Shown here: one piece after another, positions 1,022 to 48,183 of the stretch
Numbering within the stretch: position 1 is the first letter of the stretch
How the letters are laid out: each line of letters opens with the position of its first letter
DNA from: Escherichia coli
GTDB taxonomy: Bacteria > Pseudomonadota > Gammaproteobacteria > Enterobacterales > Enterobacteriaceae
DNA: 64,000 nucleotides
Strand: one strand, 5' to 3'
Assembly (NCBI RefSeq): GCF_003790525.1
Contig: NZ_CP033635.1
Position numbers and translations under genes: made by a program
The notes under the pieces: model-generated
What the model was told of the DNA's origin: nothing
What the model saw: the letters and a program-made list of their open reading frames with translations, nothing else
Databases searched by the model: none

Positions 1022-2703
1022 GCCTCGTCCCTCCATGGTAGTCGTAACGTTATTCGGGTGTAACTATCAGGCTCACAGGCGACGCTTATTCCATAGTCAT
1101 CGCCAAACCGTTCACGTAAACGCTTATCCACCAGATTCATCCCCAGCCCACTGGCATTGGTTACCGGTTGATACAAACCGGCATTGTCTTCGATCTCCAG
1201 CATCAAATGTTGCCCCTCACGTCGGGCGCTGATTGCCACTCGCCCTGTATCCAGCAGTTGTGATGTCCCATGTTTAATGGCGTTTTCCACTATCGGTTGC
1301 AGGGTAAACGCGGGCAATTGCTGCTGGGATAATTCTTGCGGAATAGCAATGTTGACCTGCAACCGCGACTGGAAGCGCGCCTTTTCAATTTGCAGATAAG
1401 CATTCACATGTTCAATTTCGTCGGCGAGAGTAACAAACTCCGAAGGCCGCTTTAAGTTTTTGCGGAAAAAAGTGGAAAGATACTGCACCAGCTGGCTGGC
1501 CTGTTCGCTGTCGCGGCGGATCACCGCTTTAATGGTGTTAAGCGCATTAAACAAAAAATGGGGATTCACCTGGGCGTGAAGCAGTTTGATCTCTGACTGG
1601 GTGAGCATCGCTTTTTGCCGCTCATATTGCCCGGCAAGGATCTGCGCCGAAAGCAATTGCGCAATCCCCTCACCCAACGTGCGGTTGATTGAACTGAATA
1701 AACGGTTTTTGGCTTCATACAATTTGATGGTGCCCATCACCCGCTGATTTTCACCACGCAACGGAATTACCAGCGTCGACCCCAGTTTGCATTGCGGATG
1801 CAAAGAGCAACGGTAAGGTACTTCGTTGCCATCAGCGTAGACCACTTCACCGGTTTCAATCGCTTTTAAAGTATAAGTTGAAGAAATCGGTTTGCCGGGT
1901 AAATGGTGGTCGTCACCAATTCCGGTAAAGGCCAGCAATTTCTCTCGATCGGTAATCGCGACTGCACCAATATCCAGTTCCTGATACAGCACCTGAGCCA
2001 CTTTCATGCTGTTCTCTTCGTTAAACCCCTGGCGCAAAATGCCTTCCGTCGAGGCTGCCACTTTCAGCGCAGTGGCAGAAAAAGCCGAAGTGTATTTTTC
2101 AAACATCGCGCGTTTATCGAGCAATATACGCATAAACAGCGCCGCGCCGACGGTATTGGTGACCATCATTGGCGCAGCAATATTACTCACCAGACGCACC
2201 GCATCTTCATAAGGTCGGGCGATCGCAAGGATGATCAGCATTTGCACCATTTCAGCGACGAACGTGACGGCACCGGCGGTAATGGGGTTAAAGACTTTAT
2301 CAGTGCGCCCGCGGCGGATCAGGATGCTGTGTACCAGGCCACCGAGTAATCCTTCAACGATGGTCGAGATCATGCAACTTAACGCGGTCATGCCCCCCAT
2401 CGAATATCGATGTAAGCCGCCGGTCAGCCCAACCAGCCCACCGACGACCGGACCGCCGAGTAAGCCGCCCATTACCGCGCCTATCGCACGGGTATTGGCA
2501 ATAGAATCGTCAATGTGCAACCCAAACCAGGTGCCCATGATGCAGAAGATGGAAAAGACGATGTAGCAGAGAAATTTATGCGGCAGACGAACCGTGACCT
2601 GCATTAACGGTATGAATAATGGCGTTTTACTCATTAACCATGCAATGACTAAAAAAACGCACATCTGCTGAAGCAGCAGCAACACCAGATTAAAATCGTA
2701 CAT
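1018..2703 (-). CDS. btsS: Sensor histidine kinase BtsS (YehU), 5TM-LytS type
   Basis: ORF 1018..2718; start [13 protein letters not shown] gives 561 aa; membrane N-terminus, GAF and HATPase regions. Confidence 0.92.
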
Positions 2704-2924
2704 ACCCGCAAACCACACTTCCCTTTAAAACGCGTAACATACATTGCCTGCGTTTAACTTTCTTTGAACTCTTGCAGAAAAATGAGAATTCGTGAGTACG
2801 ATCACTCAAAATCGCCTGGCAAAAATAAAATCACCCTATAGATGCACAAAAAACGGGCAAAACTACCTGGTTCGCAAAACTGCGTCTAAAGTTAAACCGG
2901 GACCTCGCGAGCAAGGGTGAGACG

Positions 2925-3656
2925 ATGGCGCTTTACACAATTGGTGAAGTGGCGTTGCTTTGTGATATTAATCCTGTCACGTTACGCGCGTGGCAGAGGC
3001 GTTACGGATTGCTGAAACCGCAACGGACAGACGGCGGTCATCGGCTGTTCAACGATGCCGATATTGACCGGATCCGCGAGATCAAACGCTGGATCGACAA
3101 CGGCGTGCAGGTCAGCAAAGTTAAAATGCTGCTCAGTAATGAAAATGTTGATGTGCAGAACGGCTGGCGCGATCAGCAAGAAACATTACTGACTTACCTG
3201 CAAAGCGGCAATCTACATAGCCTGCGAACGTGGATCAAAGAGCGCGGTCAGGATTACCCCGCCCAGACACTCACCACACATCTGTTTATTCCTCTGCGCC
3301 GACGGCTTCAGTGCCAACAACCGACTCTCCAGGCGCTGCTGGCGATCCTCGACGGCGTACTGATCAACTACATCGCCATTTGTCTGGCTTCGGCACGTAA
3401 AAAACAGGGTAAAGATGCGCTGGTGGTTGGCTGGAATATTCAGGATACCACCCGTCTGTGGCTGGAGGGCTGGATTGCCAGTCAACAAGGATGGCGCATT
3501 GATGTCCTCGCCCACTCGCTCAATCAACTACGCCCTGAACTATTCGAAGGCCGTACATTGCTGGTGTGGTGCGATGAAAATCGAACCTCCGCCCAACAGC
3601 AGCAACTCACCAGTTGGCAAGAACAAGGCCATGATATTTTCCCACTCGGCATTTAA
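2925..3656 (+). CDS. mlrA: MerR-family transcriptional regulator MlrA (activator of csgD)
   Basis: 243-aa ORF MALYTIGEVALLCDINPVTLRAWQRRYGLL with MerR HTH; divergent from btsS as in E. coli. Confidence 0.92.
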   Translation: MALYTIGEVALLCDINPVTLRAWQRRYGLLKPQRTDGGHRLFNDADIDRIREIKRWIDNGVQVSKVKMLLSNENVDVQNGWRDQQETLLTYLQSGNLHSLRTWIKERGQDYPAQTLTTHLFIPLRRRLQCQQPTLQALLAILDGVLINYIAICLASARKKQGKDALVVGWNIQDTTRLWLEGWIASQQGWRIDVLAHSLNQLRPELFEGRTLLVWCDENRTSAQQQQLTSWQEQGHDIFPLGI

Positions 3657-3715
3657 TGATTCGTTAACAAATGCGCTTTACTGTACAATCCTTTCGTTAA
3701 CATAAGGAGTGCATT

Positions 3716-3823
3716 ATGCGCATAGCTAAAATTGGGGTCATCGCCCTGTTCCTGTTTATGGCGTTAGGCGGAATTGGTGGCGTCATGCTCGCAGGTTATA
3801 CCTTTATTTTGCGTGCTGGCTAA
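3716..3823 (+). CDS. yohO: Small membrane protein YohO (35 aa), below ORF-track cutoff
   Basis: Read from sequence: SD taaggagt then [38 protein letters not shown] stop; coordinates approximate. Confidence 0.7.
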
Positions 3824-4535
3824 GCGCCTGCACCAGCCTTTCAAACAGGCGGTCTGCGATGATCGCCGCCAGTGCCACCAGTAACGCCCCCTGGATCACA
3901 TACGCGGTATTAAATCCGCTAAGCCCGATGATGATGGGCGTACCCAGCGTGCTGGCCCCTACCGCTGAGGCGATCGTCGCCGTACCAATGTTGATAATCA
4001 CCGAAGTTCGCACGCCCGCCAGAATCACCGGAGCCGCCAGCGGTAGCTCGACCTTACGCAGTCGCTGACCACGACTCATTCCCATACCTTTCGCAACTTC
4101 TGTCACGCTGGCATCAATCGCTCCCAGCCCGGCAAGTGTCGCCTGCAGGACGGGCAGCACACCGTAAAGGATCAAGGCGATAATCGCTGGTTGCAGACCA
4201 AAGCCGATCACCGGAACGGCGATCGCCAGCACTGCGACGGGCGGAAAAGTCTGTCCAACGGCGGCAATAGTTTCCACCAGTGGGCGAAATTCCGCGCCCC
4301 ACGGGCGAGTGACAGCAATTCCGGCACCAGTGCCAATGATCACCGCAAACAAACTCGAAATTCCCACCAGCCAGAAATGAGCCAGTGCCAGAGCTGCAAA
4401 ACTTTCTTGCTGATAAACGGGTCGTGGCAGTTGTGGGAACAAGGCAGCAAACAGCGGCTGGCTGTAAGGCAGCCAGAAAATCAGCGCCACAAACAGAGCA
4501 ATGAGCCAGAACAGCGGATCGCGCAACATCTTCAT
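3804..4535 (-). CDS. yehW: Osmoprotectant ABC transporter permease YehW
   Basis: 243-aa ORF, multi-TM ABC permease; first gene of the yehZYXW (osmF) operon order. Confidence 0.9.
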
Positions 4536-19018: not shown

Positions 19019-19918
19019 ATGTTTTCTGGGCTGTTAATCATTCTGGTTCCCCTGATTGTGGGTTACCTCATTCCGCTTCGCCAAAAAGCTGCATTAAGAG
19101 TTATTAATCAGCTATTAAGCTGGATGGTTTACCTTATTCTCTTTTTTATGGGTATCAGTCTGGCGTTTCTCGATAACCTCGCCAGTAACCTGTTGGCGAT
19201 TCTGCATTATTCTGCTGTCAGTATTACCGTTATTTTACTGTGTAATATTGCCGCCCTGATGTGGCTGGAGCGCGGCCTGCCATGGCGCAACCACCATCAT
19301 CAAGAAAAACTCCCGTCGCGTATTGCGATGGCGCTGGAGTCGCTAAAACTGTGCGGCGTAGTAGTGATTGGTTTTGCCATTGGCCTGAGTGGACTGGCTT
19401 TCTTACAACATGCGACCGAAGCCAGTGAATACACCTTAATTCTGCTACTTTTCCTCGTCGGTATTCAGTTGCGCAATAATGGCATGACCTTAAAGCAGAT
19501 TGTCCTTAATCGCCGGGGAATGATTGTCGCCGTGGTGGTGGTTGCCAGTTCATTAATTGGTGGTTTAATTAACGCCTTTATTCTTGATCTTCCCATCAAT
19601 ACCGCGCTGGCAATGGCCTCCGGTTTCGGCTGGTATTCTCTTTCCGGTATTTTATTGACCGAATCTTTTGGTCCGGTAATCGGGAGCGCGGCGTTTTTTA
19701 ATGATCTGGCCCGTGAGCTGATTGCTATTATGTTGATCCCTGGGCTGATTCGCCGTAGCCGCTCGACTGCACTGGGCTTATGTGGTGCGACGTCGATGGA
19801 TTTCACCCTGCCCGTTCTTCAACGTACTGGCGGGCTGGATATGGTCCCGGCGGCGATTGTTCACGGTTTTATTCTTAGCCTGTTAGTGCCGATCCTCATC
19901 GCCTTTTTCTCTGCATAA
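19019..19918 (+). CDS. lysO: Lysine exporter LysO (YbjE)
   Basis: ORF 18971..19918; start MFSGLLIILVPLIVGYLIPL gives 299 aa polytopic membrane protein. Confidence 0.9.
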   Translation: MFSGLLIILVPLIVGYLIPLRQKAALRVINQLLSWMVYLILFFMGISLAFLDNLASNLLAILHYSAVSITVILLCNIAALMWLERGLPWRNHHHQEKLPSRIAMALESLKLCGVVVIGFAIGLSGLAFLQHATEASEYTLILLLFLVGIQLRNNGMTLKQIVLNRRGMIVAVVVVASSLIGGLINAFILDLPINTALAMASGFGWYSLSGILLTESFGPVIGSAAFFNDLARELIAIMLIPGLIRRSRSTALGLCGATSMDFTLPVLQRTGGLDMVPAAIVHGFILSLLVPILIAFFSA

Positions 19919-29283: not shown

Positions 29284-29493
29284 GATCGATCTCCTTGTTT
29301 GTTAAGCCTTCGATCTCTAAAGCATTATCGGACTGATATGCCATGTTGGGAAGAAGGTTTTGATCAGTTTAGGAAATCATCTCATTGTGTCAAAAACAGG
29401 TACATAAGCCTGTACAATTATCTGTTTCGTAACCGGATATTGGTTTCATTATGGAGCACCGCTTACCTGCCCTATTATGTTGTGCCGGCAACA

Positions 29494-31296
29494 TTAATGA
29501 GTGGGAAGAGCCAACTTATATTGTAAATGATTCCTAAAGTCTTCCCCATCTTGCGCCTGAGGTATATACCTCTGGATTGCTTTTTGGTCAGCCGCCGCAA
29601 AACAAGAAAGTAATAAGATCTCAATGCTTTTGTCATTAATATAAGCGAAGATCATTCTTGCAAATTCGTATATAAACGCCCGATCCTGAGCGCTTAATAG
29701 TTTAATACAATATTTATTTTTAAGAAAATAAAGTATTTCAAGGAAAGCATCCGCAGCAACCTTCACGTTATTACCGGCGGTCATATTATATATATCTCTT
29801 GCACAGATAGAGTACAGAGATAGTAAACAGCCATACAAATAATCATTTATTAATTCTTTTGTCCATTTTACTGGCAACCATGGTTTTATCTTGACACCAT
29901 GCATACTACAGTCATGAAAAAGACATTTACTGAAATTAACTCTTATCATATCAACATTGAAAAAATGGCAGTTAATAAATTTTAAAGAATGAGTATTTAC
30001 GTTGTTAATTTTAACAGATCTAAACGAAATATTTTTGAATACACTGTTTATTACATTGCTATTTGTGATTTTAACATCACCTAAACTGCCGTTTTCAAAA
30101 CAACATTTTTTCAATATGCTTTCATTCACAATAGTGTGTGATAAATAGAGATTATTTATGTTTTGCTTTATTAATGCCACGTCATTAAAATGACTATATT
30201 TAATAAAGCAACCATCATTGAGTAGTGTTTTAAGATTGACTAAATTAGTTGCATCTTCACGTACCATCATGGCAACTGGAACAGGCAACGACATAAGAAC
30301 TTCTTCATTCACCATCAAGTGAATCATGCATTGCGTTCCCTTTGTCATATCCACACTTACGCTACAAATATCGTTGTAATGCGAAGAGTGCATTTCAGGA
30401 AACAAATTAAACACGGTATCTTGAAAGGCACTAAATCGTGTTAATAAATCCTGATAATGAACAGGTTTTGTTTCAAAATTATCATCAGCAAATCCAAGTA
30501 CTATTGCATGCTCGATATTTAACGCAGTTTCAAATGATTCTTCTTCTGTAAAATCATTATTTAAAACCTCACCTGACGTATTTTCACTGTCATAAAAAGT
30601 ACTCATCAATGCGATATTGTTTGTTACAGCGTCTTTTGCGATATTCTCACTAATTGCATATCGCCTGCTATAATCATAAAAATGAATAAACGCATCCTTT
30701 ATAAAGGATATATATTGCTCTTTGTTAAAGTCAATACGACTGTATAATTTTTCAAAAATCACATTCGCAATCTTACTACCCATAGTATGCCTGTATAATA
30801 ATGGATGCGATTCAATCGTAAAATGCTTGTCTAATTGATGTTGTAATTTATTCTCATAGTCCAGTGGGAAAAGAAATTTTTGTCTTTCAAGTTTCCCATT
30901 CGATACATTACGTATTCCAATGGTAATTCTTTCATTACCCACTTTTATTTCAACTTCGTTATCTTCTGATTTGCCAAGATATTTTTTAACATCAATCTCG
31001 AAAGCATTACTAAAAAATATATTAAATTGATAATTCGCTGATGTAATATTTTCCGCTAGCAACTCATCATTTTTTATGAGATCACTATCAGCATTTATTG
31101 CTAATATCAGATGCAAGTAGATGGTGTCCCATGTAGACAACTCACCCTTACGACTGGAATTTAATATCGCGAAAAATTCCCTCAGTGAATCGAGGAAATT
31201 ATCACTTTGATTCAGTTGTGTGCCTGGAAATGATGATGCTTGATCAGATATATTGTTTATCATATTAAAAATCACCCAAGGGAAAAGATATTCCAC
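29494..31296 (-). CDS. Hypothetical 600-aa protein with C-terminal pentapeptide-repeat segment, in an AT-rich island; function unknown
   Basis: Long uninterrupted ORF in strongly AT-rich DNA inserted between ybjQ and ybjP; residues about 405-465 read as tandem pentapeptides with F/M at the central position (…FKNIS FRSVK INNVN THSLK FINCH FFNVD MIRVN FSKCL FHDCS MHGVK…). Confidence 0.75.
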   Translation of the reverse strand: MEYLFPWVIFNMINNISDQASSFPGTQLNQSDNFLDSLREFFAILNSSRKGELSTWDTIYLHLILAINADSDLIKNDELLAENITSANYQFNIFFSNAFEIDVKKYLGKSEDNEVEIKVGNERITIGIRNVSNGKLERQKFLFPLDYENKLQHQLDKHFTIESHPLLYRHTMGSKIANVIFEKLYSRIDFNKEQYISFIKDAFIHFYDYSRRYAISENIAKDAVTNNIALMSTFYDSENTSGEVLNNDFTEEESFETALNIEHAIVLGFADDNFETKPVHYQDLLTRFSAFQDTVFNLFPEMHSSHYNDICSVSVDMTKGTQCMIHLMVNEEVLMSLPVPVAMMVREDATNLVNLKTLLNDGCFIKYSHFNDVALIKQNINNLYLSHTIVNESILKKCCFENGSLGDVKITNSNVINSVFKNISFRSVKINNVNTHSLKFINCHFFNVDMIRVNFSKCLFHDCSMHGVKIKPWLPVKWTKELINDYLYGCLLSLYSICARDIYNMTAGNNVKVAADAFLEILYFLKNKYCIKLLSAQDRAFIYEFARMIFAYINDKSIEILLLSCFAAADQKAIQRYIPQAQDGEDFRNHLQYKLALPTH

Positions 31297-46323: not shown

Positions 46324-48009
46324 GTGAATATAAACGTCGCCGAATTGTTAAATGGGAATTACATTCTGTTATTATTTGTGGTCCTCGCGCTTGGGCTATG
46401 TCTCGGGAAATTACGACTTGGTTCGATCCAACTGGGTAATTCCATTGGCGTTTTAGTCGTATCGCTGTTATTAGGCCAACAACATTTCAGCATTAACACC
46501 GACGCGCTTAATCTTGGCTTTATGCTGTTTATTTTCTGCGTCGGGGTCGAAGCCGGACCGAACTTTTTTTCCATTTTTTTTCGCGATGGGAAAAATTACC
46601 TAATGTTAGCACTGGTGATGGTTGGCAGTGCGCTGGTCATCGCCTTAGGGTTAGGTAAGCTGTTTGGCTGGGATATTGGCCTGACGGCCGGTATGTTAGC
46701 AGGCTCTATGACGTCAACACCGGTTTTGGTCGGTGCTGGCGATACACTGCGTCATTCCGGCATGGAAAGCAGGCAGCTCTCACTGGCACTGGATAATCTG
46801 AGCCTCGGGTATGCCTTAACCTATTTAATCGGTCTGGTGAGTTTGATTGTTGGTGCGCGTTACTTGCCGAAATTGCAGCATCAGGACTTACAGACCAGCG
46901 CCCAGCAAATCGCCCGCGAACGTGGCCTGGACACAGATGCCAACCGTAAGGTTTATTTGCCGGTGATCCGCGCCTACCGCGTCGGCCCGGAGCTGGTGGC
47001 CTGGACCGACGGCAAAAATCTGCGTGAACTGGGTATTTATCGACAAACCGGCTGCTACATTGAACGTATTCGACGTAACGGGATTCTGGCAAATCCAGAC
47101 GGTGATGCCGTGCTACAAATGGGCGATGAAATAGCGTTGGTAGGCTATCCCGACGCCCACGCCCGACTCGATCCCAGTTTCCGTAATGGCAAAGAAGTTT
47201 TCGATCGTGACCTTCTCGACATGCGTATCGTCACTGAAGAAGTGGTCGTTAAAAACCATAACGCTGTAGGCAAACGTCTCGCACAACTGAAGTTGACCGA
47301 TCACGGTTGCTTCCTTAACCGCGTCATTCGTAGCCAGATTGAGATGCCGATTGATGACAACGTCGTGCTTAACAAAGGTGACGTTTTACAAGTCAGCGGC
47401 GATGCCCGTCGCGTAAAAACCATCGCCGATCGCATCGGCTTTATCTCGATTCACAGCCAGGTCACTGACTTGCTGGCATTCTGCGCCTTCTTTGTGATTG
47501 GGCTGATGATCGGGATGATCACCTTCCAGTTCAGCACATTCAGTTTCGGCATGGGGAACGCTGCCGGGTTGTTATTCGCCGGAATTATGCTGGGCTTTAT
47601 GCGTGCTAACCACCCGACCTTCGGTTACATTCCGCAAGGTGCATTAAGCATGGTGAAAGAGTTCGGCTTGATGGTGTTTATGGCAGGCGTTGGTCTGAGC
47701 GCCGGTAGCGGTATTAATAACGGCCTGGGCGCGATTGGCGGTCAAATGTTGATTGCCGGATTGATTGTCAGTCTGGTGCCAGTGGTTATCTGCTTCTTGT
47801 TCGGTGCTTATGTATTGCGAATGAACCGCGCACTGTTGTTCGGCGCAATGATGGGCGCACGCACCTGCGCGCCGGCAATGGAGATCATCAGTGATACAGC
47901 TCGCAGTAACATCCCGGCGCTGGGCTATGCGGGCACCTATGCAATCGCCAACGTCCTGCTGACGCTAGCAGGGACAATCATCGTCATGGTATGGCCAGGA
48001 TTAGGATAA
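46324..48009 (+). CDS. ybjL: AAE-family transporter YbjL (TrkA-C domains)
   Basis: 561-aa [31 protein letters not shown]…. Confidence 0.9.
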
Positions 48010-48085: not shown

Positions 48086-48164
48086 GCCACTGCTTTTCTT
48101 TGATGTCCCCATTTTGTGGAGCCCATCAACCCCGCCATTTCGGTTCAAGGTTGGTGGGTTTTTT
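48086..48164 (+). ncRNA. rybB: sRNA RybB (sigma-E-dependent, Hfq-binding; represses OMP mRNAs)
   Basis: GCCACTGCTTTTCTTTGATGTCCCCATTTTGTGGAGCCCATCAACCCCGCCATTTCGGTTCAAGGTTGGTGGGTTTTTT matches remembered RybB, including terminator hairpin and U-tail; lies between ybjL and rcdA as in E. coli. Confidence 0.8.
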
Positions 48165-48183
48165 GTTGCCTGAAATTTATCTA

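Follow-up and report, generated by a model that had tools for sequence, protein, structure and literature searches.

Two small membrane protein genes of Escherichia coli, yohO and yohP, hidden by an ORF length cut-off and intact in a strain with an IS-bearing inversion junction

The two short frames that an ORF track had passed over in this 64,000-nucleotide stretch of E. coli DNA (the window) are almost certainly the genuine and already catalogued genes yohO and yohP. They are known and routinely annotated, not new or unannotated; RefSeq/PGAP carries both in thousands of E. coli genomes. The identification rests first on exact matches. The yohO ORF together with 60 nt of upstream sequence is 100% identical at the nucleotide level to K-12 b4542, and the yohP ORF with its own 60 upstream nucleotides is 100% identical to b4679, so that the match to the K-12 proteins, which the sequence-only reading had named as the check to make, is exact for both; the names, the lengths (35 and 27 aa) and the coordinates that it had given are likewise correct by ORF listing and by the K-12 match. 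The window is 99.99% identical to E. coli SMS-3-5 (NC_010498.1, reverse strand) over the 59.7 kb compared. RefSeq places “protein YohO” and “small membrane protein YohP” at the matching positions in genomes identical over the stretches queried; yohP is annotated in SMS-3-5, and yohO is covered by an annotation at the same place in a genome that shares an identical 801-bp stretch. The region around yohO is found in 5423 of 5426 complete E. coli genomes, and yohO is annotated in all 15 genomes among the matches listed (of the 5423 holding the region), with the same result for yohP.

That both frames were missed by the ORF track is true, and the cause is its length cut-off and nothing else: the default minimum of the ORF tool is 60 aa, and our listing was made with a minimum of 20 aa. 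An ORF of this length is by itself not above chance, since 339 ATG-started ORFs of 20 to 50 aa occur in the window. Among those 339, only yohO and yohP combine a 19-residue Kyte-Doolittle maximum of at least 2.3 with a Shine-Dalgarno-like motif, a contrast that is illustrative only, as the 2.3 threshold was picked post hoc with the values already seen. The plausible Shine-Dalgarno sequence claimed for each frame is indeed present, AAGGAG for yohO and AAGGA for yohP, both 6 nt 5′ of the ATG.

The yohO coding sequence (3716..3823, + strand) starts with ATG and encodes 35 aa with a single hydrophobic helix of the UPF0387 / NF010225 family. The NCBIfam equivalog model NF010225 matches YohO at 80.1 bits against a cut-off of 57, covering residues 1-35 of 35. 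A Pfam search of YohO gave no family, the sole match being to B12D at chance level (E = 0.36), and B12D was rejected as the family of YohO on that ground. By hydrophobicity, YohO and YohP are both of transmembrane grade. The gene occupies the position expected of its family, between mlrA (2925..3656, +), its upstream neighbour across a 59-bp spacer, and yehW (3804..4535, −), encoding a glycine betaine ABC transporter permease, with which it is convergent and overlapping; the last 20 bp of yehW overlap the 3′ end of yohO, so that the overlap, put at about 20 bp beforehand, is exactly 20 bp (3804-3823). K-12 YohO (b4542; UPF0387, NF010225) shares the 108-bp coding sequence and upstream region, the mlrA-yohO-yehW order and the 20-bp overlap, and no difference from the window is detectable.

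The AAGGAG of yohO (3704-3709, +) lies in columns that are near-invariant across 55 species. Just upstream is a conserved block (3650..3702, +; column conservation 0.8-1.0 in the 55 species loci) that holds a -10-like hexamer, TACAAT (3684-3689, +), flanked by the two copies of a direct repeat, TTCGTTAACA (3660-3669 and 3693-3702, +), 33 bp apart. To judge from its layout and conservation, this block looks like a promoter with a regulator site, and it would then serve as promoter and operator of yohO. A sigma-70 consensus scan of the + strand upstream of yohO called no site, and sigma-70 promoter and intrinsic-terminator scans around yohO and yohP gave nothing above shuffled sequence, with no terminator for either gene. 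The promoters named here for the two genes are accordingly those indicated by cross-species conservation and the literature only.

The yohP coding sequence (17069..17152, +) also starts with ATG and encodes a 27-aa protein, MKIILWAVLIIFLIGLLVVTGVFKMIF, with a single transmembrane helix. The NCBIfam equivalog NF011345 matches it at 67.3 bits (cut-off 58; residues 1-27 of 27 covered), and Pfam PF25659 (YohP) at 50.6 bits against a cut-off of 27. With a GRAVY of 2.47 and a best 19-residue window of 2.96, the protein consists of little more than one transmembrane helix, with Lys2 and Lys24 on either side and containing Gly15. Its AAGGA (17058-17062, +) was read directly. The only conserved island 5′ of yohP in the cross-species columns is CCTATACTT at 17031-17039, which contains the heptamer CTATACT (17032..17038, +). 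This heptamer agrees with the sigmaS -10 consensus. Because it combines that fit with a place in the conserved island, and because YohP is sigmaS-dependent in Salmonella, we infer that CTATACT is probably the sigmaS-type -10 element of yohP. The divergent upstream neighbour is mdtQ (15409..16845, −), encoding an outer-membrane efflux protein, which is intact here at 478 codons and also in SMS-3-5, and which is annotated as a pseudogene in K-12 MG1655. K-12 YohP (b4679; PF25659, NF011345) has the identical 84-bp coding sequence and 60 upstream nucleotides and the same divergent mdtQ neighbour. The two loci differ downstream, where K-12 has an intact TRIP1c repeat followed by dusC, whereas the window has a TRIP1 split by an insertion sequence (IS) and then lysO. 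Thus the mdtQ side of the orthologous position is kept, and the dusC side is now IS plus lysO.

Conservation of the two frames was next compared beyond E. coli. A scan of species-representative genomes anchored on Dld, with 10-kb flanks, yielded 80 loci covering the neighbourhoods of both genes, from Escherichia, Citrobacter, Salmonella, Enterobacter, Klebsiella, Raoultella, Kosakonia, Siccibacter and others. YohO is full-length in 55 of the 80, always with an ATG start and a length of 34-37 aa; its pN/pS over these 55 loci is 0.24, and residues G19, G22, V23, M24, L25, G27 and Y28 are invariant. YohP was found in 37 loci with its length unchanged and the frame intact in 36 of the 37. Its pN/pS is 0.048, its variable columns fall mostly at third codon positions (11/1/24 for the first, second and third), residues 11-27 are invariant in the 37 species, including G15 and K24, and column conservation is 0.83 in the ORF vs 0.44 upstream and 0.30 downstream. 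The conservation in related genomes whose absence had been named as grounds for giving up the two genes is therefore present for both. Because the frames are intact, pN/pS is low and residues are conserved, and because yohP varies at third positions, both frames are, on this comparative evidence, under purifying selection as proteins across Enterobacteriaceae.

The same data bear on the notion that these are chance ORFs in non-coding DNA, yohP being only an sRNA and yohO only a 3′ or antisense transcript of yehW. The abundance of short ORFs noted above lends this notion some initial appeal, as does the fact that yohP of Salmonella was first listed as non-coding (STnc1330; PMC5437024). Chance ORFs, however, would not be expected to show the pN/pS values of 0.048 and 0.24, the single variable second position of yohP against 24 third positions, starts and stops conserved across genera, conserved Shine-Dalgarno sequences, and curated HMM matches above cut-off for both proteins, and a purely non-coding role is contradicted by the published detection of tagged YohP and of YohO by mass spectrometry (MS) and Ribo-seq. 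We regard this reading as refuted by codon-level conservation and published protein detection, and its residual probability as negligible.

Both mdtQ and dusC lie within the flanks in 19 of the 37 yohP loci, mostly with yohP directly between them. YohO stands beside yehW in 54 of 55 loci, the remaining one having no yehW that could be found; this co-occurrence is confounded by synteny, since the 25 loci without yohO are likewise missing, within the flanks fetched, the entire mlrA-yehW neighbourhood. The exception is Escherichia sp. MOD1-EC7003, in which yohO lies only 3 kb from dld, an arrangement that suggests deletion of the yehWXY-osmF-bglX block with yohO spared. In every one of the 54 species loci having both genes, the convergent coding sequences overlap by 17-26 bp. 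The length of the overlap (17, 20, 23 or 26 bp) goes with that of YohO, which runs from 34 to 37 aa; orthologues from Klebsiella-, Enterobacter- and Kosakonia-type genera are 37 aa long, carry two additional residues at the C-terminus and overlap yehW by 26 bp.

For YohP there is by now a substantial literature. The K-12 protein is an integral inner-membrane protein, mostly in a C-in/N-out orientation, that forms SDS-resistant dimers for which Gly15 is required and that is inserted post-translationally by SRP via SecYEG or YidC (PMC7549839); targeting of the yohP mRNA to SecY or YidC is also possible independently of SRP (reviewed in PMC12648545). Its level rises in stationary phase, in minimal medium and when oxygen is limiting (PMC12719787), and Salmonella YohP, originally catalogued as the non-coding sRNA STnc1330, is sigmaS-dependent (PMC5437024). 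Production of YohP lowers membrane potential and fluidity, raises cardiolipin, switches on the psp and stringent responses and leads to a condensed nucleoid, an outcome that the authors term “metabolic silencing”, and the depolarisation is sublethal (PMC12719787, PMC12542507). Survival of stress is reported to be lower without YohP (PMC12719787 / PMC12542507). Since the sequence is identical, this K-12 biology probably carries over to the strain studied here. In stationary phase, or when nutrients are limiting, a short sigmaS-type transcript of its own would then give rise to YohP, which would dimerise through Gly15; accumulating protein would partly dissipate the membrane potential, and this depolarisation would set off the phage-shock and stringent responses, condense the nucleoid and leave the cell metabolically silent and tolerant of stress.

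A small membrane peptide that depolarises the cell and drives it into dormancy could also be described as, in effect, a chromosomal type I toxin. Like type I toxins, YohP when produced does depolarise the membrane, reduce metabolic activity and condense the nucleoid (PMC12542507, PMC12719787), and the comparison has been drawn in a review (PMC12648545). YncL, YshB, YkgR and AzuC, and the toxins TisB, HokB and DinQ, share with YohO and YohP a length below 50 aa and a single hydrophobic helix, and YncL, like YohP, depolarises the membrane and condenses the nucleoid (PMC12542507). Neither these stress proteins nor these toxins, however, have any sequence relationship to YohO or YohP. Unlike the type I toxins, yohP and yohO have no known antitoxin RNA, antisense or otherwise, and the effect of YohP is reported as sublethal and protective, with stress survival reported to fall when the protein is lost. 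Nor does the locus itself argue for an antitoxin: the flanks of yohP are poorly conserved save for the -10 box, with no antitoxin-like conservation, and the one weak consensus match for an antisense promoter opposite yohP, on the − strand, is no more than shuffled sequence gives. We thus consider it quite unlikely that YohP is a type I toxin in this sense and favour the sublethal, protective silencing described for K-12.

YohO, according to the literature, is translated and membrane-associated. It has Ribo-seq coverage and is described as membrane-bound, with Hemm et al. 2008 as the source, in 10.1101/2020.05.05.079178, and it has been detected by top-down MS (PMC12529367). The yohO-yehW pair has been listed as a convergent excludon from RNA-seq coverage (PMC12288877). 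The invariant residues suggest how the protein might work: YohO may pack by a face of small residues (G19, G22-V-M-L, G27-Y) against itself or against a larger inner-membrane partner, for which the osmoprotectant transporter YehZYXW, convergently overlapping with it, is the obvious candidate. The conserved 3′ overlap may in addition couple transcription of yohO and yehW antagonistically, as an excludon. Both the partner and the excludon role are ones that we infer only. Taken to its extreme, the excludon idea would make yohO act mainly at the RNA level, its transcript reaching into yehW as a convergent antisense regulator of yehZYXW and the peptide being secondary, and both the excludon listing and the retention of a 17-26 bp coding overlap in 54 of 54 loci fit such a role. 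Constraint on the peptide, however, extends far beyond the overlap, as its invariant GxxGVMLxGY core and its pN/pS of 0.24 show, and the protein itself has been detected (PMC12529367). A mainly RNA-level yohO is thus doubtful in our estimation, with the proviso that RNA and peptide roles are not exclusive, and a translated, membrane-associated YohO is the reading that we prefer.

The second subject is the junction downstream of yohP. Up to 17380, 228 bp beyond the stop codon of yohP, the window is collinear with the 2.23-Mb region of K-12; starting at 18765 it matches the 0.91-Mb region in reverse, with genes such as lysO, hcp, hcr and poxB. That yohP is the last gene collinear with K-12 before the IS and the breakpoint had been seen rightly. 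The further argument, that the integrity of yohP places the junction 3′ of its stop codon, gets the side right but supplies only a loose bound; direct comparison fixes the junction at 17380/17381, inside a TRIP1 repeat. The last collinear stretch is the left part of TRIP1 (17202..17380; TRIP1c type, the yohP/dusC side). It is followed by an IS110-family insertion sequence of 1384 bp (17381..18764, −), delimited by annotation, Pfam matches and reading of its ends, and then by the right part of TRIP1 (18765..18860; TRIP1a type, the lysO side), where the reverse match to K-12 at 0.91 Mb begins. The first gene beyond the junction is lysO (ybjE; 19019..19918, +). It stands in the place of dusC because of an inversion, and dusC is found at the reciprocal junction. 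The yohP gene, its Shine-Dalgarno sequence and its -10 box are untouched by the IS 228 bp downstream.

The transposase gene of the element (17654-18679, −) encodes an N-terminal PF01548 domain (56.7 bits) and a C-terminal PF02371 domain (87 bits), as expected of the DEDD type. The element has no long terminal inverted repeats, only subterminal ones of 11 bp (ATGGACGCTCC / GGAGCGTCCAT), and a non-coding end of 273 nt 3′ of the transposase gene; an Rfam scan inside the IS gave no match at the gathering threshold. The insertion point (GGTAACAT|..|ATCCCTG) is identical in both TRIP1 copies of SMS-3-5, with the AT at that point possibly duplicated. Sequence-specific insertion into a repeated target, with a duplication of at most 2 bp, is a trait of the IS110 family, whose members also encode a guide (bridge) RNA able to pair with target and donor.

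TRIP1 itself is about 245 bp long. It is intact in K-12 in both the yohP-dusC and the lysO-aqpZ spacers, and is split here by the IS. A REP/BIME element was considered for the junction repeat and rejected, the repeat being the published TRIP1 (TRIP1a, TRIP1c; PMC10888264). The intact K-12 repeats align over their full length with the Rfam motif TwoAYGGAY (RF01731) at 30.9 and 30.6 bits, below the gathering score of 43 (17230-17381, −, and 47037-47176, +, of the K-12 stretches compared), and membership of that family is not claimed from these sub-threshold scores. This alignment shows two hairpins, whose loops read CAUGGAUG and CAGGGAUG, and the IS insertion point falls within the second hairpin loop (the window is split at 17380/18765). 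One possibility is that TRIP1 is a structured RNA, another that the IS recognises its target as a hairpin.

The inversion is not new. The junction in the window is one of the two formed by the ~1.3-1.4 Mb terminus inversion of SMS-3-5, for which the TRIP1a/TRIP1c inversion and the inverted termination area have been published (PMC10888264, PMC8347550), with ybjE/lysO beside yohG/mdtQ, as here, and a reciprocal aqpZ-dusC junction. In SMS-3-5 that reciprocal junction, aqpZ-IS-dusC, lies at 2.314 Mb (positions 2364-3980 of the stretch compared) and carries a second copy of the IS, inverted and 99.35% identical to the first. What differs from the published inversion is the IS: a 1384-bp IS110-family element sits at the same position in both junction repeats, whereas a term search of the main text of PMC10888264 found no mention of an IS or transposase at the junctions, nor of yohP. 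Among 5426 complete E. coli genomes, the yohP-TRIP1-IS arrangement occurs in 95, the aqpZ and dusC flanks are joined across an IS-sized insert in 85, and a yohP-TRIP1-lysO junction without an insert occurs in none. Every inverted junction found carries the IS, which is the one mildly new point. Because there are 95 and 85 IS-bearing junctions and none without an insert, the IS copies, not the bare TRIP1 repeats of the published account, may be the substrate on which the inversion arose, whether by homologous recombination between the copies or by the recombinase itself.

Several other features of the window were noted in passing. Rfam matches the Peptidase-S11 RNA motif in the pbpG leader region (12971-13051, −; 72.8 bits vs a gathering score of 34.8) and the sRNA RybB (RF00110) in its expected place between rcdA and ybjL (48089-48167, +; 104 bits). 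Relative to K-12 there are two inserts, whose contents are known from the SMS-3-5 annotation: one of ~2.5 kb (about 29345-31892) between ybjP and ybjQ, with a truncated pentapeptide-repeat protein gene as a pseudogene (about 30058-31296), and one of ~1 kb (about 59439-60434) between dgcI and rimO, whose genes (about 59659-60364) encode a RelE/ParE-family toxin and an HTH antitoxin.

The boldest proposal that we would put forward has two separate parts, namely that YohO is a dedicated subunit or regulator of the glycine betaine transporter YehZYXW (OsmF), coupled to it by the overlap, and that the inversion was made by the IS110-family copies and not by bare TRIP1; taken whole, it is speculative and improbable. 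If it were true, yohO would be the first small protein of such a kind to be tied to its partner by a built-in excludon. Apart from that proposal, the analysis draws attention to YohO as a small membrane protein that is both conserved and expressed. Neither the IS insertion nearby nor the megabase inversion has disrupted yohO or yohP in this strain, and the pair shows how real, conserved genes of under 50 codons are lost from view when a length cut-off is applied.
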